Shown here one piece after another: positions 688-43,202 of a stretch of DNA of 64,000 bases (position 1 is the stretch's first letter; every line of letters begins with the position of its first letter). Source of the stretch: Salinibacterium sp. (GTDB taxonomy: Bacteria > Actinomycetota > Actinomycetes > Actinomycetales > Microbacteriaceae). The DNA lies in the NCBI GenBank assembly GCA_004297555.1, contig SCSV01000081.1, positions 826-64,825 of the forward strand. Reading direction: 5' to 3'. A program made the position numbers and the translations under genes. Under the pieces are notes generated by a model, which worked only from the letters and a program-made list of their open reading frames with translations, had not been told where the DNA came from and did not search any database.

Positions 688-1178
688 CTGACACTCCTCG
701 GAAGCTCCACGTGCGGCCTATCAATCCTGTCCGGTGGCCAATCACCGCCCCAGATCAAACCCTCGGCCCTGGCCACCGGTCCGATGCGATCGAACTTCTC
801 GATGTCTTCCCACGGAACGAATGGCTTGCCCGTCCCAGGGGCCAAAACATAGGGCGCGAGATCGATCGCCCTCGACAGCAAAACACCGTTGTAGTCAACG
901 CCCTGATGGTTGGATTTGCTATGCACACCGTCGCAGTTGGTAACTGTGCCCTTGTTGGCCTCCGCGGTGATCGGCGCAAAATGAACGGCCAGCCTCAGTG
1001 CGTTGACCTCATCGAGAGACATCCTTCCTTGAGCCCAGAGCGCCCACTGCTCCTGCTGGGTACGCATCACCGGCTGACAAATCGAGAGACCTTCGCCCTT
1101 GTACTGTAATGGGTACATCAGCAGCATGGCCTCGACCTTCTGCACCAGGATGGGGTGGGCGTACCTCTGCCAGTTCAT
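684..1178 (-). CDS. Endolysin, M15-family (L-Ala-D-Glu-type) peptidase
   Basis: RTQQEQWALWAQGR, VTNCDG..SNH, AIDLAP, WGGDW, DRPHVEL motifs. Confidence 0.85.
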   Translation of the reverse strand: MNWQRYAHPILVQKVEAMLLMYPLQYKGEGLSICQPVMRTQQEQWALWAQGRMSLDEVNALRLAVHFAPITAEANKGTVTNCDGVHSKSNHQGVDYNGVLLSRAIDLAPYVLAPGTGKPFVPWEDIEKFDRIGPVARAEGLIWGGDWPPDRIDRPHVELPRSVR

Positions 1179-1181
1179 GCC

Positions 1182-1355
1182 TCAGCCTCCGATTGGGCTG
1201 TGCCTGCGAACGTCGGGACCACCGGTGTCGATCGCCGTCTGTTGCCAGAATGCCTTGTCGGCGTCCGAGAGGGCGTTCCAGGTATCTTCGTTTCCGCCGC
1301 CGGAAGTCAGGAAGAGCTGCTTGCCCTCGGCGTACGGATCTGCTGTTGCTGTCAC
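1182..1355 (-). CDS. Small acidic hypothetical protein (57 aa)
   Basis: GTG start overlaps upstream stop; GGAGG RBS. Confidence 0.5.
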   Translation of the reverse strand: MTATADPYAEGKQLFLTSGGGNEDTWNALSDADKAFWQQTAIDTGGPDVRRHSPIGG

Positions 1356-1939
1356 GGGTGACCTCCTAGAAGTTTGATGATGTGCGGCAGGCCGTCCTGT
1401 ACAATCTTTACGGCCAGGCCTGCCGTCAGTGTGATCGCCAGCCATCTGATGGCTTTGGCGCTTTTTGAGAAGTTGGCCCATTCGATGGCCAGAGTATCCA
1501 CCTTGGTGACGAGGCCATCGCGCCCAGCGTGCGCATCGGTTCCGAGTAGGATGGATCTGTTCGCCGACTCCATTGCCGATCGCTCGTTCATCTTCTTCAC
1601 CGTATCCGCGAATCTGTCTTCCAGCCTATCGAACCTAAGACTCAGATTTCCGACGACCGTGGCGTTCTCGAGCTTGTGACTCTCTCGCCAGCTCTTGAGG
1701 TTTTCGATATCCGCCACCTGGCGCGCGAACTCGCGATCGCGCCAGGTTTCCCAGTTGGCCCAGCCGTGAAATGCCTTGGAGAGTCTTTCGTCGAGCATCT
1801 TGTTGATCTCGTCGAGCTCTCTCCTGACGAGGGCGAAGGATTCCTCTGACCTCTCATCGACTCTGCGAATCTCTGCACCGAGCCGAATGAATTCGGCGTC
1901 GAGCCCTGCTGTTGCATTCTGGTGGTTATGCTCTGCCAC
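1352..1939 (-). CDS. Coiled-coil protein with C-terminal TM helix (holin/XhlA-like)
   Basis: Helical heptad body; C-terminal AIRWLAITLTAGLAVKIV; GAGGTG RBS before GTG at 1939; close to the endolysin. Confidence 0.55.
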   Translation of the reverse strand: MAEHNHQNATAGLDAEFIRLGAEIRRVDERSEESFALVRRELDEINKMLDERLSKAFHGWANWETWRDREFARQVADIENLKSWRESHKLENATVVGNLSLRFDRLEDRFADTVKKMNERSAMESANRSILLGTDAHAGRDGLVTKVDTLAIEWANFSKSAKAIRWLAITLTAGLAVKIVQDGLPHIIKLLGGHP

Positions 1940-2068
1940 ATCGTCACCTCGCTGCCGTCTTACTGCTGGCCGCCATGGTGGCGTAGCCGGTCCTCTCGAC
2001 ATGGTTCACCCCCCTCATCAGGTAATGACACCTAGCGAGCAGGACGTGAGCGGGTCGAGTCGAAAAAT

Positions 2069-2221
2069 TCACAGACGACGGTCCTGAAGGATTTTGATGA
2101 CGACGACGATGAGAACCACGACCAGCAGAATGTGGATCAGCCCTCCGGCAGAAAATCCGCCCAGGAGTCCCATTGCCCACATCAGGACTAGTAGAACAAT
2201 CAGTAGCGTCAATGGGTCCAT
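2069..2221 (-). CDS. lmo0937/DUF5670-like small membrane protein (50 aa)
   Basis: LLIVLLVLMWAMGLLGGFSAGGLIHILLVVVLIVVVIKILQDRR matches the family pattern as recalled. Confidence 0.75.
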   Translation of the reverse strand: MDPLTLLIVLLVLMWAMGLLGGFSAGGLIHILLVVVLIVVVIKILQDRRL

Positions 2222-2222
2222 A

Positions 2223-2651
2223 TCAACTCCCTTCAGGGGCCGAGGCGCCTGCCGCGGCAGCTTCATCCGTTGCGGGTGGATCCTCGAATCCAAGCCAGGA
2301 TCGAATTGCGGTGACGGCTGTTTTGCGCGTCCATGCCGCGCCACCCGCGAGAATACCGATAGCGTAGGTCCTCCAGTCGATCTCCCCCGAATACACTGAG
2401 CTCACCGTATAGTCGATAAAGAAGAGGGCGAGTCCGCAGTAGGCGTTGATCATCCCCTTGGATTTATACCAAGGCACTACCCTTACGGTTACGTGTGCCG
2501 CGGATGCCGGAAGCGGCCCGCTTACGGGCGCTAGGGGAGCTGCGACTATGGCGCCCGGGGCGCTGGTGGTGCTGGCCATCAGCGTGCCAGCGGGGGCGGC
2601 GGCTCCAGGGGCGGGCGTTGGTGTCTCAGTAGCCATGTCCGATCCCATCAC
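2223..2651 (-). CDS. Putative holin (2 TM) with Pro/Ala-rich N-terminus
   Basis: PWYKSKG followed by two hydrophobic segments; lies in the lysis cluster. Confidence 0.55.
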   Translation of the reverse strand: MMGSDMATETPTPAPGAAAPAGTLMASTTSAPGAIVAAPLAPVSGPLPASAAHVTVRVVPWYKSKGMINAYCGLALFFIDYTVSSVYSGEIDWRTYAIGILAGGAAWTRKTAVTAIRSWLGFEDPPATDEAAAAGASAPEGS

Positions 2652-2941
2652 GGCTTCTTGGCCGTCTCCAGTTCGTCCATGATCTGGACGCCAAGCATGA
2701 ACAGCTTCTGCGCCGGAGAGTCGGGACCCATGGTGGCCGCGGCCTTGAGCAGGTCAGTTTTCAATGTGCTGGAGCCGGCCGGTATCGAGGCCCCGTTCAC
2801 GGCGCCAGCGATCTCCTCGACGATCTGGACGACGCGTGGCCCCTCGTTGAGGATCAGCCGCATCGCAGGATTCTTCAGCACGTTCATCACGAAGGTGAGG
2901 ATGGAAGGGCTAAGTACCGGGGGCGGGGCGGTTTCTGGCAT
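2648..2941 (-). CDS. Hypothetical protein
   Basis: Coupled ORF, AAGGAG RBS. Confidence 0.55.
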   Translation of the reverse strand: MPETAPPPVLSPSILTFVMNVLKNPAMRLILNEGPRVVQIVEEIAGAVNGASIPAGSSTLKTDLLKAAATMGPDSPAQKLFMLGVQIMDELETAKKP

Positions 2942-3120
2942 TACGACTCCTTCTTCGGCGGATGGGTTTCGAAATATGGCTCGGCGAGAGGCTTTTCCTC
3001 GGCCGCAGCCTTGATGGCCGCCTTGGTGTCGGCAGCTTTGTCTTCCTTGTTGGGGACAAGCCCCAGAATCTCCACCGCCGCCTGCAGACCGAAGACGACG
3101 GCGTCTACAACGCCAGCCAT
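2941..3120 (-). CDS. Small hypothetical protein (59 aa, MAGVVDAVVFGLQAAVEILG...)
   Basis: Read by hand (below the ORF-track cutoff); TGATG coupling upstream, TAATG downstream. Confidence 0.55.
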   Translation of the reverse strand: MAGVVDAVVFGLQAAVEILGLVPNKEDKAADTKAAIKAAAEEKPLAEPYFETHPPKKES

Positions 3121-23973: not shown

Positions 23974-24336
23974 ACGGTGAGCGCGCCGGGGCTGGTGCCA
24001 GCCATGAGTATCGCCGCGTCCCTGGTTGACATTGTTAGGTTCGTCAATCTTTGAATTTGAAACCTCCTAATCCTAAAAGGGTAAAAGGGAAAATGGGTGA
24101 GGGAGGGACACTGTATACCTCGCAAGGCCGATGCCATTCCGAGAGACCGAGGCCACCGGGGAGGGTCACCGCTTGACCCTCCGTCCGCTTCGGGTGACGC
24201 TACTCTTCGCGTCGTCGCTGTTGCGCCTTGCGGTACCGCTCCGACCCGGCTCGGGACACGGTTCACCGGTTCGCTTGTTGCTTGTCATTGTCGTTTCCCC
24301 CATGTCCCAAACATAGGCGGCCCCCTGGGTCAATAT

Positions 24337-24624: not shown

Positions 24625-24800
24625 GCGCCTATCGTCCGTCGGACGTACTCGCGCACGATTGCTCGATCACGCTCGGTCACTTCGACGACGACGACCCGCG
24701 CCGTCGTCGCGCGCAGTCGCTCGCGCGCAAGACGGAGTCGCTCCACCCGTCGCTCGTCTTGACGGTCGCGCTCTCGCGCGAGCCACTCGCTGTCACTCAT
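24621..24800 (-). CDS. Early hypothetical Arg/Glu-rich protein
   Basis: AGGAG RBS; coupled ORF. Confidence 0.5.
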   Translation of the reverse strand: MSDSEWLARERDRQDERRVERLRLARERLRATTARVVVVEVTERDRAIVREYVRRTIGA

Positions 24801-25057
24801 CTCGTCCTCTCCTCTCTTCGTTCCTTCCACGCTTCCACGGCTCTATCGAGCCATGACCTGACCCTCTCCTCGTCGCTCACTCTCCAATGCTGCTCGTCCG
24901 CTCCACGCTCGATGCGTCCGTCTCGCTCTAGCCTCAGTAGTGTCGCCTCGATCTCGCTCGGGCTCGCGCCCGTGATCTCTACCAGGTACCAGGTCGAGCA
25001 CGTCCCACGACCCGCCTCGATCTCCGACAGGACGCGAGCGACGAGAGGACGCGTCAC
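24797..25057 (-). CDS. Early winged-helix-like protein
   Basis: STWYLVEITGASPSEIEATLLRLERDGRIERG...HWRV. Confidence 0.55.
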   Translation of the reverse strand: MTRPLVARVLSEIEAGRGTCSTWYLVEITGASPSEIEATLLRLERDGRIERGADEQHWRVSDEERVRSWLDRAVEAWKERREERTR

Positions 25058-25843
25058 CTAATCTCTCGTCTCTTCGCTGGCCCGCACGGTCGCTCGACGC
25101 CCGACGATGAGTCGCTCGCGCGGACCCGGTGTGCGCATCGCCGCATGCGTTGCGTGCGTCACGACGCCATCGATCACGACGTGTCCAGCCGGTAGCGTCT
25201 CGCTCCGTCCGCCCCCGCTTACGAGCGCGACGTCACCCTGACGCTCGATAATAGCGTTCTCGCGTCCGCGCCAAATCCAAGAGACCGCCTCTCGTACCGT
25301 CACACACTTGACCGACACGGCATGCGCGAACCAAGTACCGGTCTCGTTGCGTCCGATCAGGTACCGTGTCGCCACGCTCGACGGGCCCCACTTGCACGAG
25401 CGTGCGTACCGCCTCGTCCGTCTCACCTCGACGAGCGCTAGCCCAGCTCTCCCCTTGTCAAGGTACGGTGACAGCACACTCACCGTCGGGCCAACGTAGT
25501 CCAGACCGTAGGTCGTGAGATAGTCGCCTCGTGTCGACCCGTGCTCGTCGTAGAGCATCCCGGCGTGCGTGGTCATGGCGCGCGCCTTGTCGCGTCGGCG
25601 TTGATCGCTCCAATACGTCCCTACCCGCGGGTCGCGCTCGGGCCTCGGCCCGAGAAACGTGCGCATGAAGCGCACGCGGTCGAGCGCGGACGCGCGCTGG
25701 TACGCCGCCTCGAGACGGGCCCTGCGCTCGACGTTCCCACGGCGCCCGCGCTCGGCCTCGACGCGTCGAGCGAGCGGGACGAGCGAGCGCACCGCAAGGC
25801 CTTGCGCGCGAGCCAGGGCGGAGGACGTCAGGGCCGCGCTCAC
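25058..25843 (-). CDS. Early protein with RQGD...H...H C-terminal motif
   Basis: IERQGDVALV...GHVV...THATH; GTGA-coupled start. Confidence 0.55.
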   Translation of the reverse strand: MSAALTSSALARAQGLAVRSLVPLARRVEAERGRRGNVERRARLEAAYQRASALDRVRFMRTFLGPRPERDPRVGTYWSDQRRRDKARAMTTHAGMLYDEHGSTRGDYLTTYGLDYVGPTVSVLSPYLDKGRAGLALVEVRRTRRYARSCKWGPSSVATRYLIGRNETGTWFAHAVSVKCVTVREAVSWIWRGRENAIIERQGDVALVSGGGRSETLPAGHVVIDGVVTHATHAAMRTPGPRERLIVGRRATVRASEETRD

Positions 25844-26025
25844 TTGCTCACCTCCGTCACCCTGATCTCGCTCTCCGCGTATCCGCAAAAAGCGATAACC
25901 CCGCGGCGCTCGCGGTCCGCCTCTTCGCGCGTGGCGAATTGGTCGGAGCCAAGAGCAAGCCAGCGGGGAGATCCGTCAGGCATCTTCTCCAGAGTTTCGA
26001 GCTCGTACATGTTCGCGTTCTCCAT
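25840..26025 (-). CDS. Early hypothetical protein (first gene after promoter)
   Basis: ATG at 26025 sits 5 nt after the -10 box; alternative ATG at 26010. Confidence 0.55.
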   Translation of the reverse strand: MENANMYELETLEKMPDGSPRWLALGSDQFATREEADRERRGVIAFCGYAESEIRVTEVSK

Positions 26026-26030
26026 ACCAC

Positions 26031-26080
26031 AATCTAGGGCCCGCTTCGGCACGTGTCAAGAGGTTTTCTCTACTATTTCA
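26031..26080 (-). promoter_or_regulatory. Early promoter (family member)
   Basis: TGAAATAGTAGAGAAAACCTC-TTGACA (26054-26059), 17 bp, TAGATT (26031-26036). Confidence 0.8.
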
Positions 26081-26111
26081 CGCTCTCGCGCGGTCGAAAG
26101 AGCGAGTGACT

Positions 26112-26254
26112 GACAAAAATTGTCTGCCAAATCGGCGCGGGCTGTCTCCCTCCAACTATTTGGACCTCCAAGAGCCAAAACCGACAATTTTTGTCACTTT
26201 TCCGACAATTTTTGTCGCTTCGACCTACAATTTTTGTCAGTGTGACATCTTGTC
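26112..26254. repeat. Array of GACA-N5-TGTC sites (iteron/operator-like)
   Basis: GACAAAAATTGTC 26112; GACAATTTTTGTC 26183 and 26204; TACAATTTTTGTC 26226; variant GACATCTTGTC 26244. Confidence 0.85.
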
Positions 26255-26904
26255 TCACTTACACTTCTTTGCCTCAAAAGTGCGACACCATGCCCAAATC
26301 AAAGAAGTCCAAATCGAAACCCAAAGAAGTGGGCCTTTCGTCGCACTCAGACCTCTCGCAGAGCCCACTTCGAGTCCAATGTTTCCCGCGAAGTTTCGCC
26401 AAAAAACGCCTTTTTCCGAGAATTTCCCGTAAACTCGACCCCGACTTACACCGGTATCGTCCGAGCGTGCGTGTCCTCCGTCCCATTTTCGACCACTCAA
26501 TACTTTCCACTTTACCCTCCCCGAGACCTCGTTTGGCGCGTCCTCTATACGCGCAAAACCGTTCGCCTTTTTGCAAATATTTCACTCTTGCATTCTCCGC
26601 CCATTCAAATATGGGCTTCCTCAGCGACTCATCTCCTACCATATATACGTTCCCGCCCTAATCAAGTTAGTAAACTACTCTCGTCATCTCCCCAGTATCC
26701 ATGCGGGTCTAGCCTCAAAGAGTTTTCCTAGAGGCTAAAATTTTAGCATTTCCCCGCCTCCGTCACTTTAGCTCTTATCATACTCTATGACCTAGACTTA
26801 CCCTCTCTCAGCCCCGGAAACTACGTCCTCAAATTCTGCCAGAAGAAGACGCGTCCAAACCGTCTAACCCCGCTCAGTTCCACGTCCAATCTAGCCCAGT
26901 TTCG

Positions 26905-26941
26905 CGAAAACCTTGACACGCGCCGAGCCTAACCCTATCTT
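26905..26941 (+). promoter_or_regulatory. Early promoter (family member)
   Basis: GAAAACC-TTGACA (26913-26918), 17 bp, TATCTT (26936-26941); ATG 6 nt later. Confidence 0.75.
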
Positions 26942-26947
26942 AGGCTC

Positions 26948-27598
26948 ATGCTTATCTACATCATTCAAGATCAAGGTCCACGGCTCCATGAGACCGACGA
27001 AACCGCACTTTTGCAGGCATGGCGTGAGACGCTCGGAGCAAAAATGGTGACGCTTCGGGAGGCCGTGCACCATCCCGCCTTGACCCCGTACTTCGGGCAG
27101 GCTCCTAACCTACGCAGTTTAGGGCACTTATTCCGACGCCTCTCGCTCCGTCACCTGATTTACCGTCACGGGCGCTCGAAGCCTATCCTGTGGAGCGCCG
27201 TTCCACTCTTCGAGTCGACCACGGCTAGCCTCGACCTTATCGCGTCGATCCTAGCCGTCCTAGGGCCCGTCCCGCGCTCTACCAGGTCGCTCCAAGGCGA
27301 GCCTAGCCTCTCCGCCCTATCCCGGCTCTCCACGCGCTCCGTGGGGAAGCTACTGGCCCGCCTAGCGTCCGACCCACAGTCAGGCATCATGCGGGCGCCC
27401 GTCAAGCGCTCCAACGTCATCCTCTGGTCGGCCTCACCCTACACTCGCCCGGTGCCGGTCCACTCTCCCGATCCAGCCTCCGCGCTCACCCTCGCTCCCG
27501 TCGACGTAGCGTCCGCCACGCGAGACGGCGATGACGCGGGCGCCACGCGTGAGGACGATGAGGCTATCGGCACGTCCGCCCTCGACTTCGACTTCTAA
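26948..27598 (+). CDS. Tandem winged-helix-like protein resembling the primase C-terminal domain; acidic DFDF tail
   Basis: Internal duplication RSLGHLFRRL/RSVGKLLARL and RSKPILWSAVP/RSNVILWSASP. Confidence 0.6.
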   Translation: MLIYIIQDQGPRLHETDETALLQAWRETLGAKMVTLREAVHHPALTPYFGQAPNLRSLGHLFRRLSLRHLIYRHGRSKPILWSAVPLFESTTASLDLIASILAVLGPVPRSTRSLQGEPSLSALSRLSTRSVGKLLARLASDPQSGIMRAPVKRSNVILWSASPYTRPVPVHSPDPASALTLAPVDVASATRDGDDAGATREDDEAIGTSALDFDF

Positions 27599-27847
27599 CG
27601 CCTCGCGCGTCCGCGCGTCTCGCGCCCGACGACCGGTGACGAGCACGAACCGCGGGAGCCATCCCGCCGACGTCGACACTCTCCCCGTGATCGCCGTCGC
27701 CCCATGCCATGGCTCGACCCGCACGCGCCGACCGCTCTCATACGCGGCCCGGACCGTCTCGTGAGCCTCCAGGAGCTCCGAGGGGTCGAACCGATGGCCC
27801 CAAACCATCGGGCCCCATCTCAGGCGACGAGCGAGACGCGTGCTCAA
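27434..27847 (-). CDS. Conserved phage hypothetical protein
   Basis: RFDPSEL...YESGRRVRV...GRVSTSAGWLPRFVLV pattern; coupled to upstream ORF. Confidence 0.55.
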   Translation of the reverse strand: MSTRLARRLRWGPMVWGHRFDPSELLEAHETVRAAYESGRRVRVEPWHGATAITGRVSTSAGWLPRFVLVTGRRARDARTREALEVEVEGGRADSLIVLTRGARVIAVSRGGRYVDGSEGERGGWIGRVDRHRASVG

Positions 27848-28116
27848 AGCGTCACACTGACACGGTCAAGGCCTTCGACACGCGTCCAGCGGACAAGCCT
27901 ATCGGTCCACGCGATGCGCACCTCCAGCGCTCCGTGACGCGTGCGTGCTCCGGTGACGCGTATAGGCCTGTCCATTGTCGACATGGTGTATAGAATGTGC
28001 CGACGAAGCGTGACGCTCCTGCCGTCCGCCAGCGCCCGATTGATCGCGCGCGCCGTCACTTCGTCACTTCCCAGCAGACGATCAGGCCTTGACGTGTAGT
28101 TGCGTAACCTTCGCAA
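27844..28116 (-). CDS. Early hypothetical protein
   Basis: Coupled ORF; start uncertain. Confidence 0.45.
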   Translation of the reverse strand: MRRLRNYTSRPDRLLGSDEVTARAINRALADGRSVTLRRHILYTMSTMDRPIRVTGARTRHGALEVRIAWTDRLVRWTRVEGLDRVSVTL

Positions 28117-28159
28117 GGTACGTCAAACTCGGCAATATGACAGACTGAGCATGCTAACC

Positions 28160-28444
28160 TCACGAGTCGACCTCATCAGCGACCTGTTTCTCAGTAAACA
28201 TCCAGCTTCCCCAGCCTTTAATTGTATTGGGCTCGCGAACGCCGACATACTCAACGTATTCCGCTAGAGCGCTCAGCTCCACGCATTGGCGCTCGTCATC
28301 CTGTTCTCCGCCGTCGCGCGTATACTCGACCTCACTTAGCAAGTCTTCGGAGATAGCGCCCGACGACATGAAAGAGTACATCTCGCTCGCTTGCCCGTTA
28401 TGCCACCAAGAGGCGATTGTATAGGCGCACGCGTGCGAGATCAC
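28160..28444 (-). CDS. Conserved phage hypothetical protein
   Basis: ISHACAYTIASWWHNGQASEMYSFMSSGAI; GTGA-coupled start. Confidence 0.6.
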   Translation of the reverse strand: MISHACAYTIASWWHNGQASEMYSFMSSGAISEDLLSEVEYTRDGGEQDDERQCVELSALAEYVEYVGVREPNTIKGWGSWMFTEKQVADEVDS

Positions 28445-29189: not shown

Positions 29190-29347
29190 GCCGCACGCTC
29201 CTTTCCGAGTTTCTTCATGATCTCCCTGACAAGTCCGCTCTCGCTCCGAAACGACCAGAGTGCCAAGCTAGGGCAGTGATACACGGTACCGTCTGACATG
29301 ATCTCATGTCCTCGGAGCGTGCCGACGACGTGGACGCGCGTGCTCAC
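29186..29347 (-). CDS. Small early hypothetical protein
   Basis: GTGA-coupled start. Confidence 0.45.
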   Translation of the reverse strand: MSTRVHVVGTLRGHEIMSDGTVYHCPSLALWSFRSESGLVREIMKKLGKERAA

Positions 29348-29490
29348 TTGACGGCTCCACTTCGGCCCGTATAGGCTCCGATGCGTGTCTCCGGGAGACT
29401 CTCCGCCTTGCTCCACTTCGTGACGCGCCCGATAATCGGGCGCCCGAACTTGCGCGGATTGTAGTGTGTGGTTTCGAGGGTGATTCGCAT
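29344..29490 (-). CDS. Small early hypothetical protein (48 aa, MRITLETTHYNPRKFGRP...)
   Basis: Read by hand; GGAGG RBS. Confidence 0.5.
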   Translation of the reverse strand: MRITLETTHYNPRKFGRPIIGRVTKWSKAESLPETRIGAYTGRSGAVK

Positions 29491-29903: not shown

Positions 29904-29952
29904 ATCATAAGCCTGCCTCACGGTCTGTCAAGAGGTTTTTTCTACTATTTCA
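29904..29952 (-). promoter_or_regulatory. Early promoter (family member)
   Basis: TGAAATAGTAGAAAAAACCTC-TTGACA (29926-29931), 16 bp, TATGAT (29904-29909). Confidence 0.8.
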
Positions 29953-30530: not shown

Positions 30531-30929
30531 ATGAGCGAGCGAGACACCAAGCTTGAATTGATCGACGATGTTGACGGGATGACGTATCGTGACGTGCTCG
30601 TGGATTTATGCCTGTCTCGTGCACGCGTCTTGACAAGCGCGGGCCGAAGCTCCATATTGCTAGAGCGTGTCGAGCTCCGGCCCGACGCGTGGTCGACCCG
30701 GAGCTCGCCCCCCACCCCGGGGGCCAGCTCACGGGCGCGCGCGAAACCGCGCGGCAGGACCCGGCCTGGGGGCGCCCTGAAAAGCGCGCGGCAGGACCCG
30801 GCCAAGGGGAGTTTTAAAAACCGCGCGGCAGGACCCGGTATAAAGGCTTTTCAAAAAGTGCGCGGCAGGACCCAGGGAAAACCTCTTGACAAACCTGTGG
30901 CGCCGGCCTATGTTCGAGTAGATGAATGA
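30531..30929 (+). CDS. Hypothetical protein; C-terminal half runs through the repeat array
   Basis: Plausible N-terminus after the promoter; low-complexity C-terminus. Confidence 0.4.
   Translation: MSERDTKLELIDDVDGMTYRDVLVDLCLSRARVLTSAGRSSILLERVELRPDAWSTRSSPPTPGASSRARAKPRGRTRPGGALKSARQDPAKGSFKNRAAGPGIKAFQKVRGRTQGKPLDKPVAPAYVRVDE
30749..30873. repeat. Four direct repeats GCGCGGCAGGACCC(GG), 37-bp period
   Basis: Copies start at 30749, 30786, 30823 and 30860, each preceded by an A-tract. Confidence 0.95.
30877..30914 (+). promoter_or_regulatory. Early promoter (family member)
   Basis: GAAAACCTC-TTGACA (30886-30891), 17 bp, TATGTT (30909-30914); ATG 7 nt later. Confidence 0.8.
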
Positions 30930-31266
30930 AACTCTGACCGGCCTCGCTCGCCCTTGGGGCAAACGTCGCGCCCTCGCGCGCCAGCTCAGCGGACCACCAC
31001 ACAATCTCACGCAGGAGCAGATCGCGGAACAGCTTGGCGTAACGCGCCAGCGTGTCGGGCAACTCCTAAAGGTAAAGCAGCAGCGCGCAGGAAGGCCCAG
31101 GACGCTGCGCACGCAACACAATCAGGTCTGCGGCAAGAAGATGTCGCCGAAGGTTGTTGCTGCTGTAAGACGCTTCTCTGGCGAGAAGGAAATCTCTCAC
31201 CTGGCCGCTCTCGAATACCTTGCGTCGGTCGGTGCTGCCAGTGTCTATCCAGAGGCAGGCACGTGA
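30922..31266 (+). CDS. HTH DNA-binding protein (sigma-70 region 4-like HTH)
   Basis: LTQEQIAEQLGVTRQRVGQLLK. Confidence 0.75.
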   Translation: MNETLTGLARPWGKRRALARQLSGPPHNLTQEQIAEQLGVTRQRVGQLLKVKQQRAGRPRTLRTQHNQVCGKKMSPKVVAAVRRFSGEKEISHLAALEYLASVGAASVYPEAGT

Positions 31267-39973: not shown

Positions 39974-40347
39974 GGCCTTCCTTTCCGTGTGTGCGTGAAT
40001 GAATCTGCATTTCCGGAGAACGTCGGTACCTGGGTCATTGTCATGAACTCGTGCTGTAGCCCGATGGTGGCGTTCGACAAACGGCCGCCGTCGTCAGCGA
40101 TCTCGAGTGGAGCGCAGGCGAGAAGATGCGAGCGCAGGACAGCCCCGGGCCGGCCGTCTGTAGCAGCCTGGCGTGCCAGCAGGAGCGAGGCCCGGATGCA
40201 CGACTCCAGGGAGTCGTCTTTGGTCGTAGCCCATACCAAGGCCTTCGCGTCGCTCATGAGCCTGAAATACTCAGGCCCGAGCGTTTCCTTGAGCGCTCGT
40301 CTACGACGAACTATCTTCTCGAAGGCCACATCGGCTTCGTTCATCAC
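39967..40347 (-). CDS. Hypothetical protein
   Basis: GGAGG RBS; coupled to the primase stop. Confidence 0.55.
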   Translation of the reverse strand: MMNEADVAFEKIVRRRRALKETLGPEYFRLMSDAKALVWATTKDDSLESCIRASLLLARQAATDGRPGAVLRSHLLACAPLEIADDGGRLSNATIGLQHEFMTMTQVPTFSGNADSFTHTRKGRPW

Positions 40348-43202
40348 CCCTCCGGCCAGCACGTTGTGCAAATTTGAGTGTTAGTTTTCTTGGACAACCT
40401 GAACTCGGTCCCATCGCAGGATTTGCACTGGAAACGCTCGATGCCCTTGATGACTCTCCAGACCCTGACGCCCTGAGCAGTCCCTGCCGCCCTGATCTGC
40501 ATGCCGCGCTCGATTCTACCAACATTCTTGATGACGTAATTGGTGAACGTGCGCGGGTTGATTTCGCGTCCAGCGTGGTCGCCGGCGCACTGTAGCAGCG
40601 TCTGCCTGAGTTCCTCGTTCGAGGAGATGTTCGCGCATTTCATGACGTCGGTTAGTGTCACCGGGCGATCGTTGAAGACGTTCCACCACTGCAACATCAC
40701 CTCACCAAGATAGCTGCGAGTCGAATCCTTGTCCTCGACCTCGCGTCGACTGTCTGCAGGGTCTGGCATGCCGTAGGCGACGATTGTGCCCGCCACCATC
40801 GCCTGCCACTCGCCAAAGCCAGCCCAGTTTTTTAGATTGGGTCTATATACCCCAAGGCAACCGCTGCGATGCGCGACCAGAGTCGTCAGTGCGGCGGCCA
40901 CCAGTTCGGCACGATGCTTCAGGGCGTAGGCCGCAATGTCGCGCGTGAACGTCCGTTCCTCGGGATGCTCGAGCTGGGGGTCCAATCGCGATAGCAGCAC
41001 GCGGACCGTGATGTCTCCGGTGAACGTCAGGTTGTTGCCGGTAGCCAGGAAAGTCGCGTTCGTGGGTGCATAGACCTGCCGAGATTCACCGAGAATCCGA
41101 TCGCTGACCACCTGTTGCGTGAGCGCCTGGCAAATCGCCGGATCACCAAAAGGTCGCTCGATGTTGTCGTAGCAGATGACTGCGTCGCCGCCGAGCAGTA
41201 CCGCAAGTAGTCGCTTCTTCTCTTCCTCTGGTCGAAGTGCGTTTGGAGGCAGGACCGGGCACGGACGTCCGGTGGCCAGTAGGGCGACGACGTCAGCCAG
41301 CATCGTTTTCCCGGTCCGCATCTTCGGAGCTGTGAACGCATGCATCGGCGCGCTCGGCAGGCTCTTGCGAACCAGCGCTGTCAAGATGGCGCTGATCGCG
41401 ACGCTGCGATCGACCTTCGAGACGAACGGAAACTCCTCGAGGAGGTCCGTGAGTCGCGTCATCGCCGCGCGCGCCTCTTCGATCGTCGGCTTTTCACTGA
41501 TCGGCGAGAACTGCGCTTGCCCAGGATCGTAGACCAGCCCCGTGGCCTCGTCGTAACCAGGGTCCTGCAGGATCGACCCGTCCGGTCGGATCGTCGGGGC
41601 CTCGATGATCCCCAGCATCGGTCTTGCCGTCCACTCGCCCGCCATCGACAGCAGAACCGAGCAGACCTGCTCCGGCGCGTCGCAGGCCACGAGCTCCTGG
41701 CTGCGCGTTTCTATCTTGCGCCAGTGGGCCGCCGCAGTGAGACGGGCCAGCAGGTAGGGCGTATCGAGGGGCCTGATGACCAACGCCCCAATGGGTCTCT
41801 CGACCTCTCCGGAGCGCCGTAGCGCCAACGACTCTGTTCGGTAGAGCCTGACGAGGGTGCCTGTCCTCTGATAGACTTCGGCCCCAGCAGAAGAGATAAG
41901 GGCGGCCTCCGCGGCCACGACTGTCTCGTGTAGCTTACCGGGCTCGATCACGATCGTCGGGGCTCCCGGGCGGTCTGGGCCCTCTCGCTTCACGAGCGAG
42001 AGGAGCTTGCGTCTAGGGTTCGCGAGGCGTAGCGCCTGCTTCAGGACGGTCTTCGAGATTTTCCGTTCATAGGCCAGGCGGTTGCTCAGAATCTCACGTT
42101 CGACGGGATCCGCGATGAGCGCGAGCACCGGGATGATCTTGTCGTGGTGCTCCCCAGACGTCAGCATCGCCCTAACGGCGTCAGCCGGGGCCGCTACGGG
42201 AGCATCGTCCGGCTCCGGCTCTTCCAGCTCCGGCGCCTTGGCCGCCGGCCGCGGAACGGCACCTCTCGGGCTCGCGCCGCGCCCGTCCTTCTCGAGCAGG
42301 AACCCGATCGGCAACTTAGAGTCGTGCGTCGCGCCCTCGATCTTGTGGATGAGCTCGTCGTCGGACCACGGCGGGATGCACCGCGGATTGTAGGCCTCGG
42401 CCAGTACCTCGAACGCCGCGCTCGGGGTCAGGTTGAACCCTCGCACGACCTTGATGGCTGTATTCCACGTGTCGTGGTGTCCGTTCTGCCCGCTGACGGC
42501 ACCATCGATTTTCTCGCAGTAGCGTTTCGCCCTGAAGATCCGCTTTTCGAGATCATCATCCGACGGTGTCCTGTTGGCCTTGACTACGTGCGCTCGCTTC
42601 GGCGGATCGACCTTCTTCTCGATCGGATGCGCAGTGAGTACCTCGTCAATTGTATATTTGAGCTGCGGCCGAACATCAACCAGGTCTACGCGAAACGGTT
42701 GACCCTTCTGATGCCAGAACCCCGGGATCCGCATGACCCGGTTGAGGCCGAGAATGTTGGTGTCCGACTTGTAGTACGCGGCAAGGTGTAGCAGCGCAGG
42801 AGCGAAGCGCTCCAGTAATTCGCCTGGCTTCAATAGCCAATAGCGATGCAGACCATGCCCGGAACGAACCACGATCGACGGCTGCAGTGGGGTCTCGCGA
42901 GCTTCTCCGTCATCGTGGTCCACGAACAGCGCACGGAGTCCGACTACGTTCGCGAGCTTCCTGCCCTTCAGGTCAGTTTCCGAGATTGTCAAATACGCGC
43001 CGGCCCCCGCCTTGTTCAGCGCGACGAGCTCCTCGAAGTTGGAGGCCAGCGTCCCGTGGAATACGCGGGCGACATCCTTCCGATCCTTGACCGAATCATG
43101 GAAAGTCTGAAACGTGCAGGGGGCGGCCGGAGATCCGGCAAGCGCCGCGATGAAAACCGCTGCTGCTCTGTAGTCCGGTTGAATCACCGACTCACCGTCC
43201 AC
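40344..43202 (-). CDS. Primase-helicase (RepB-like prim domain, primase C-terminal domain, P-loop NTPase, C-terminal wHTH)
   Basis: FVDHD, SIVVRSGHGLHRYW, NRVMRIPGF; NPRCIPPWSDDEL; Walker A APKMRTGKT; CYDN. Confidence 0.85.
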   Translation of the reverse strand: MDGESVIQPDYRAAAVFIAALAGSPAAPCTFQTFHDSVKDRKDVARVFHGTLASNFEELVALNKAGAGAYLTISETDLKGRKLANVVGLRALFVDHDDGEARETPLQPSIVVRSGHGLHRYWLLKPGELLERFAPALLHLAAYYKSDTNILGLNRVMRIPGFWHQKGQPFRVDLVDVRPQLKYTIDEVLTAHPIEKKVDPPKRAHVVKANRTPSDDDLEKRIFRAKRYCEKIDGAVSGQNGHHDTWNTAIKVVRGFNLTPSAAFEVLAEAYNPRCIPPWSDDELIHKIEGATHDSKLPIGFLLEKDGRGASPRGAVPRPAAKAPELEEPEPDDAPVAAPADAVRAMLTSGEHHDKIIPVLALIADPVEREILSNRLAYERKISKTVLKQALRLANPRRKLLSLVKREGPDRPGAPTIVIEPGKLHETVVAAEAALISSAGAEVYQRTGTLVRLYRTESLALRRSGEVERPIGALVIRPLDTPYLLARLTAAAHWRKIETRSQELVACDAPEQVCSVLLSMAGEWTARPMLGIIEAPTIRPDGSILQDPGYDEATGLVYDPGQAQFSPISEKPTIEEARAAMTRLTDLLEEFPFVSKVDRSVAISAILTALVRKSLPSAPMHAFTAPKMRTGKTMLADVVALLATGRPCPVLPPNALRPEEEKKRLLAVLLGGDAVICYDNIERPFGDPAICQALTQQVVSDRILGESRQVYAPTNATFLATGNNLTFTGDITVRVLLSRLDPQLEHPEERTFTRDIAAYALKHRAELVAAALTTLVAHRSGCLGVYRPNLKNWAGFGEWQAMVAGTIVAYGMPDPADSRREVEDKDSTRSYLGEVMLQWWNVFNDRPVTLTDVMKCANISSNEELRQTLLQCAGDHAGREINPRTFTNYVIKNVGRIERGMQIRAAGTAQGVRVWRVIKGIERFQCKSCDGTEFRLSKKTNTQICTTCWPEG

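Follow-up and report, generated by a model that had tools for sequence, protein, structure and literature searches.

What is a short gene doing on its own, with a promoter of its own and pointing against its neighbors, in the early region of a phage? The question is raised by positions 26948 to 27598 (plus strand) of a 64,000-nucleotide stretch of DNA, which was analyzed as a whole and is called the window here. [quoted passage not shown] The ORF, which we call P0002, is present as described and encodes 216 amino acids ending in EDDEAIGTSALDFDF. We asked which parts of that description hold, and which role they allow.

The phage contig and its source

The window makes up most of a phage contig of 65.8 to 65.9 kb from a groundwater metagenome, binned into a 2.25-Mb MAG. 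Apart from an early island at approximately 24 to 34 kb, where P0002 is found, nearly all of the genes are on the minus strand. Over positions 25800 to 28300, a second, independent assembly of the run gives the identical sequence, so the reading frame of P0002 is not an assembly error. Among sequencing runs, the sequence of 26948 to 27598 is contained only in that of the source sample, a DNA run.

The contig encodes a primase-helicase, an SNF2-type helicase, a Sak4-like annealing protein, and a methyltransferase, as well as a family weakly matching an exonuclease (phrog_1499). No integrase or resolvase model of Pfam matches the phage contig, a search of the whole contig found no SSB, and no DNA polymerase was detected when approximately 40 of its ORFs were scanned against the PHROGs. 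Together, these results suggest that the phage is probably lytic and reliant on a host polymerase.

The bin itself holds four SSB-like genes of different types (contigs C334, C337, C230, and C170). One of them, on a 2.3-kb contig, ends in DDEIPF and has a TEWHRV core like that of the E. coli type, and two others, ending in SDETPF and LALPF, are actinobacterial by motif in our own reading. The bin may be a mixture, or mobile elements may be present in it, so that the assignment of a host to the phage is uncertain; a search for a clue to the host with one of the bin SSBs returned distant matches only.

A probable leaderless promoter, oriented against two leftward operons

The promoter of P0002 spans 26906 to 26941 on the plus strand and consists of a GAAAACC element, a −35 box TTGACA at 26913 to 26918, a 17-nt spacer, and a −10 box TATCTT at 26936 to 26941. 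Six nucleotides separate TATCTT from the ATG, the ORF starting 7 nt past the −10 box. The 64 kb were searched with a strict pattern, in which TTGAC[AT] is followed by 16 to 18 nt, TAnnnT, 4 to 9 nt, and a start codon opening an ORF of at least 30 amino acids. Only five sites were returned, at 26913(+), 30495(+), 30886(+), 29931(−), and 26059(−), and at all five an ORF of 51 to 216 amino acids begins with an ATG 5 to 7 nt beyond the −10 box. P0002 itself fits the family pattern of TTGACA, 16 to 18 nt, TAnnnT, 5 to 7 nt, and an ATG with an ORF. The claim of a promoter of its own was thus confirmed, and a leaderless mRNA is well supported by this promoter geometry.

The upstream element AAAACCNCTTGACA occurs at the other four promoters (four observed versus 0.03 expected), and an exact search for it misses 26913(+). 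The promoter there is a variant shorter by 2 nt, without the TC, in which GAAAACC directly abuts TTGACA; the GAAATAGTnGAGAAAACCnC element is not found, and GAAAACC stands alone. A longer upstream block, GAAATAGTnGAGAAAACCnCTTGACA, is common to the promoters at 26059(−), 29931(−), and 30495(+), and the GAAATAGT part is absent from those at 30886 and 26913. The presence or absence of GAAATAGT among the early promoters hints at two regulatory classes.

The orientation opposite to the neighbors was likewise confirmed, both flanking operons running leftward. No terminator-like site was found between positions 24000 and 31500, so that transcription started at 26913 should run into that started at 29931.

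The control region and its palindrome array

Approximately 850 bp with flat codon-position GC lie between the promoters at 26059 and 26913. Over positions 26001 to 27000 the GC content is 49.6%, versus approximately 61% in the window, and C is markedly overrepresented on the plus strand (GC skew of −0.31). Within this region, 26260 to 26900 (approximately 640 bp) shows flat GC by codon position, no coding signal, and an Rfam match at chance level, and could be an origin unwinding region or a noncoding transcript.

Four GACAATTTTTGTC palindromes, unique in the window, form a candidate binding site at 26112 to 26238, on the left margin of the 850 bp, with three direct copies 21 to 22 bp apart and one inverted copy. 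The array lies approximately 53 nt from the −35 box of the leftward promoter (26059) and approximately 700 nt from the gene at 26948 to 27598. The placement of the gene beside the array thus holds in that both occupy the same intergenic region, but the leftward promoter is far nearer to the array, which is tied to P0002 solely by this common neighborhood. The second and third copies of the array together make up a promoter-like sequence (CCGACA, 18 nt, and TACAAT, at 26202 to 26231) that points right, toward the noncoding stretch.

One reading of this arrangement is that P0002 is an early transcription regulator whose two repeats, described below, bind operators, for example the GACAATTTTTGTC array or sites in the other early promoters, and so switch the early operons on or off. 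The gene stands alone behind a promoter of its own and is separated by the 850-bp control region from the leftward promoter, from which it points away; the palindromes are two helical turns apart and some 53 nt upstream of the −35 box of that promoter. Regulators commonly combine a basic body and an acidic tail, as P0002 does. However, neither repeat matches any helix-turn-helix or winged-helix family of Pfam even at an E value of 10, whereas the neighbors at 24797 to 25057 and 30922 to 31266 do match such families, and the array is not repeated near the promoter of P0002. A repressor of the lysogeny type is also less likely because no integrase or resolvase model matches the contig, which leaves such a protein without an obvious role. 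Taken together, we consider a regulator unlikely.

The matches of the two neighbors are weak, being to DprA_WH and MarR-like models for the gene at 24797 to 25057 (minus strand) and to Sigma70_r4 and HTH_3 for that at 30922 to 31266 (plus strand). The gene at 24797 to 25057 sits in the operon of the array-adjacent promoter and is an alternative candidate for the protein that binds the array.

Coding potential and the internal duplication

The frame of P0002 scores best of the six in every 120-nt segment, the codon score itself being approximately neutral. Outside the overlap with a convergent gene, GC at the first, second, and third codon positions is 0.64, 0.50, and 0.73, where the long genes of the phage show approximately 0.64, 0.46, and 0.75. 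First codon positions are C rich and G poor (G at 0.26, versus 0.31 to 0.45 in real genes), Ser, Leu, Arg, and Pro are abundant in the translation, and of the whole ORF the original gene caller retained only the last 69 codons. A minus-strand ORF at 27166 to 27420 was considered as the true gene and rejected, its GC at first positions lying below that at second positions, which is a shadow pattern, and its codon score being negative.

No homolog of P0002 was obtained by tblastn against phage records, by a peptide scan of viral contigs, or by a word-indexed search of 5.8 billion proteins, and an exhaustive phmmer search of 1.84 billion representatives returned only the ORF's own 69-amino-acid gene call and a spurious translated tRNA repeat. 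The search of 61 related genomes gave chance matches only, and no other contig encoding P0002 was found. There was no match in the PDB, NCBIfam, or PADLOC, none among the PHROGs at E values up to 1 (HMMER), and none in Pfam at E values of ≤0.1 for the whole protein or ≤10 for each repeat, Rep_3 and PF00436 included. Judged by these searches, P0002 is an orphan, a gene found only in this phage. A neighboring gene of 276 amino acids has no relatives among metagenome contigs.

The protein is built from two repeats, the first at approximately residues 21 to 86 (27008 to 27205) and the second at approximately residues 97 to 164 (27236 to 27439), followed by a Pro/Ala-rich linker and an acidic tail (residues 166 to 216, 27443 to 27595) ending in ALDFDF. 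The calculated pI is 10.1 for residues 1 to 90, 11.6 for residues 91 to 165, and 4.05 for residues 166 to 216. The repeats are spaced 78 codons apart, in frame, and align with a Smith-Waterman score of 41 (z of 3.9 to 4.8), a value matched by 1 to 11 of 1,000 to 3,000 shuffles. The internal duplication seen in the earlier note is thus moderately significant, and it is confined to the ORF's own frame, in which z is 4.5 (1 of 1,000 shuffles), with z from −0.6 to 1.2 in the other five frames and 0.4 at the DNA level. Because the similarity is significant in this frame alone and absent from the DNA, it indicates selection on a protein. It probably reflects an old in-frame duplication kept at the protein level, which would be hard to explain without translation, and this frame-specific repeat is the strongest argument that the ORF is coding.

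AF2 models made without an alignment had a pLDDT of only 39.8 (whole protein) and 62.2 (repeat 1, as two long helices with a pTM of 0.39), which is too low for a comparison of folds. Of what would mark a winged helix, with its core of three helices and its beta-hairpin wing, only the pattern of helices and a conserved Trp near the end fit.

Similarity to the primase-helicase C-terminal domain

The domain with which P0002 had been compared lies in the C-terminal part (40344 to 40946, minus strand) of a 952-amino-acid primase-helicase, which carries a terminal CxxC...CxxC and scores 2e−100 against phrog_29234. Pfam has no model covering this domain, the primase has no relative in the PDB by phmmer, and the C-terminal part as sole query retrieved nothing by word search or tblastn. 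Comparison of P0002 with the primase end of its own phage, the likeness that the earlier note had quoted, gave values at chance (pairwise z of 0.1 and 1.4; hhalign P of 0.42). The likeness that stands is instead one between repeat 1 and the family as a whole.

A first profile of the domain, built from an alignment of four phage relatives, scored repeat 1 at approximately 18.5 (P of 0.008), second among 402 natural peptide windows of this phage. That match is unconvincing, since repeat 1 ranks only second of 402 once the genome-wide look is allowed for. On this smaller profile, a 48-amino-acid ORF at 29344 to 29490 (minus strand) that contains YNPRKFGRPIIGR scored 19.2, versus 18.6 for repeat 1.

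A nine-member profile was made by adding to the first set four independent metagenome relatives that are 40 to 43% identical to the primase, so that its members are the phage's own 952-amino-acid primase, Phage TPWB-08, DSS3_MAL1, RcXuper, vir525, and the four metagenome relatives. Against it, repeat 1 reached an hhalign score of 25.7 (P of 2.2e−4; probability of 45%). That score was reached by none of 400 control windows (mean, 9.0; maximum, 17.6), which were drawn from ORFs of at least 100 amino acids so that the ORF at 29344 to 29490 lies outside the control set, and by none of 300 shuffles (maximum, 17.4; z of 8). The addition of independent relatives thus raised repeat 1 from 18.5 to 25.7 and left the controls unmoved. 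The register was kept in subprofiles without the phage's own primase (P of 3e−4), with metagenome relatives only (P of 6e−4), and with phage relatives only (P of 7e−3). Repeat 1 and the family have in common the blocks LLxAW..G..P and N..SLG..L.K/R and the invariant Trp of W-R/S-V (alignment A3).

Repeat 2 aligns with the nine-member profile in the correct register at a P of only 0.13, and appears to be linked to the primase family only through repeat 1. In the reverse direction, a profile of the two repeats of P0002 does not retrieve the primase, and HMMER sees no relation of P0002 to phrog_29234. On balance, we lean toward repeat 1 being a remote homolog of the phrog_29234 C-terminal domain. 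The description of P0002 as a stand-alone copy of the primase end domain is thus supported, though modestly, at the profile level and for repeat 1, but not for repeat 2 by itself or in comparison with the phage's own primase. No stand-alone copies were found beside the primases of relatives within the flanks retrieved.

Two observations were made on the family itself. Its closest members (L101 to L105) are 40 to 43% identical to the primase over residues 415 to 919 and are encoded by ORFs of 567 to 830 amino acids; some seem to be without the N-terminal primase part, and two are on contigs of 171 and 222 kb. A middle segment of the family (EELKEALAEF..D.KG.IN..SLG..L) resembles calmodulin EF-hands in the PDB with a summed E value of approximately 3e−4, a match that was set aside, as no single stretch is significant and the repeats of P0002 are without the segment.

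The convergent overlap and the acidic tail

The description of P0002 as a solo gene is right as to its own promoter and its strand, but its last 165 nt overlap a gene that runs toward it. This convergent gene, at 27434 to 27847 on the minus strand, encodes 137 amino acids (124 if it starts at 27808), matches phrog_8217 with an E value of 2.1e−9, and has homologs in Mycobacterium phage Kostya (gp136) and Gordonia phage Clawz (gp35). The overlap, 27434 to 27598, sets the last 55 codons of P0002 against the last 54 of the phrog_8217 gene. The overlapping part alone, compared with the C terminus of the Clawz protein (TRGARVIAVSRGGRY versus TRVTRVIAVKDGNQY), gave a z of 4.9, matched by 6 of 5,000 shuffles. 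By these similarities, 27434 to 27847 is a real and conserved gene.

The two genes overlap codon against codon, each tail codon of P0002 being the reverse complement of a codon of the phrog_8217 gene, and ALDFDF with its stop is the antisense of LEVEVEG (L84-EVEVE-G90 of the phrog_8217 gene). Both frames stay open because a stop in either would need an opposite TTA, CTA, or TCA, which are rare at high GC in third positions. The phrog_8217 gene also carries an insertion at approximately residues 77 to 90, DARTREALEVEVEG, which neither Kostya gp136 nor Clawz gp35 has and whose position matches the end of P0002. A tandem paralogy of the minus-strand genes at 27434 to 27847 and 27844 to 28116 was suggested by MAFFT and rejected by BLASTP.

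The overlap bears on whether the ORF functions at all, for the promoter at 26913 might serve instead to yield an antisense or interfering transcript into the convergent operon (29908 down to 27434). In favor of this reading are the missing terminator between the converging units, the lack of homologs, the reduction of the ORF by the gene caller to its last 69 codons, and the Ser/Leu/Arg/Pro-rich composition, low first-position G, and near-zero codon score of P0002. Opposite a real gene in high-GC DNA, a frame is apt to remain free of stops, and this explains the last 55 codons. It does not extend to the 162 stop-free codons outside the overlap, which have a chance of approximately 1% at this GC by a base-composition estimate. 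The ATG is placed exactly as in the four other leaderless genes, GC at first positions exceeds that at second positions as in real genes, the similarity of the repeats is frame specific, and repeat 1 matches a real family far above controls. A nonfunctional ORF thus seems to us quite improbable; that 26948 to 27598 encodes a real protein is very probable, and a real early gene is the most likely reading.

If the plus-strand gene is translated, then its tail is physically made. The acidic tail (residues 166 to 216) lies wholly within the overlap, and its sequence is largely set by the other strand, because every codon is antisense to the conserved phrog_8217 gene. The SSB-like character claimed for it was weakened accordingly. 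SSB tails end in a hydrophobic residue, Pro, and Phe, as do the three read from the bin (DDEIPF, SDETPF, and LALPF), whereas the LDFDF of P0002 has a terminal Phe and no Pro, and P0002 has no match to PF00436 and hence no recognizable OB-fold core. It seems more likely that the tail came with the overlap than that it was tuned as an SSB-like motif.

An acidic tail ending in Phe could nevertheless matter, as in gp2.5 of phage T7, whose acidic C-terminal tail mediates contacts with replication proteins (PMC10359462). That the tail of P0002 docks the partners of SSB tails or of phage single-stranded DNA-binding proteins, recruiting them to repeat-bound DNA or titrating them, is very unlikely: it is acidic and Phe terminal behind a Pro/Ala-rich linker, as the T7 parallel would have it, and with no SSB on the contig and no DNA polymerase among approximately 40 ORFs the phage probably needs host replication proteins, but DFDF lacks the Pro-Phe of all three bin tails, there is no OB fold, and the codons are antisense to a conserved gene.

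A proposed role and comparison with known systems

For the function of P0002, the reading that we put forward, tentatively, is a DNA-binding accessory or competitor of origin recognition. By its promoter geometry, host RNA polymerase would start the transcript at or within approximately 1 base of the ATG, with no leader. The product would carry two basic repeats of approximately 70 amino acids, derived from an old in-frame duplication, of which the first would be a remote relative of the phrog_29234 C-terminal domain; its linker and acidic tail would result from translation continuing into the 3′ end of the phrog_8217 gene.

The remaining steps are drawn by analogy with the self-loading helicases SaPI Rep and PriRep, in which a C-terminal winged helix recognizes origin iterons that flank an AT-rich stretch (PMC9371898). 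We assume that the primase C-terminal domain here is likewise a winged helix and origin binder, and it is because the domain of SaPI Rep and PriRep binds iterons that an origin-binding, recruiting, or competing role is reasonable. The two repeats might then act as a single-chain pair of DNA-binding modules sitting on sites of the primase-helicase type, perhaps the phased palindromes at 26112 to 26238, where P0002 would either assist the primase-helicase in recognizing the origin or compete with it. The tail might temper DNA binding or serve for contacts with partners.

A more elaborate version, in which a split-off and duplicated origin-recognition module licenses or blocks origins as a single-chain pseudodimer, with the overprinted tail used for replication-protein contacts, is highly speculative and most improbable as a whole; it might, for example, keep out satellites or superinfecting relatives whose initiator is of the same kind.

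At present P0002 is an interesting orphan rather than a discovery, with a function assigned by inference in a phage whose host is uncultured. If the domain assignment is true, the module by which self-loading primase-helicases find an origin would occur here duplicated and free-standing, and P0002 would offer a simple handle on how such phages mark, share, or defend their origins. The 165-nt overlap with the convergent gene also bears on the origin of new phage proteins, as a clear case in which the opposite strand of a conserved gene has supplied an orphan with its tail.

Among known systems, the closest in sequence would be the C-terminal domain of phrog_29234, whose conserved blocks are matched by repeat 1 in the same order. 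Unlike members of that family, P0002 is a stand-alone protein of 216 amino acids, a tandem duplicate with no helicase core attached, and its repeats are without the family's central helix of approximately 15 to 20 residues. It is also no nearer to the primase of its own phage than to distant members of the family.

The plasmid initiators RepA, RepE, and pi (Pfam Rep_3) have two winged helices and bind iterons. P0002 resembles them in having two tandem modules per chain near direct repeats approximately 22 bp apart with an inverted copy; it differs in having no Pfam match, in being much smaller, and in that each repeat of the array is itself palindromic. With the tails of bacterial SSBs and T7 gp2.5, P0002 has in common a flexible linker and an acidic end with a terminal Phe, but its tip is without Pro-Phe, it has no OB fold, and its tail sequence is antisense to another gene. 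The comparison with SaPI Rep and PriRep is one of function, sequence relationship not being part of it. SaPI iterons lie just downstream of rep, whereas the array here is 14 kb from the primase gene; as a functional analogy, this phage too has phased repeats that adjoin a stretch of lower GC.
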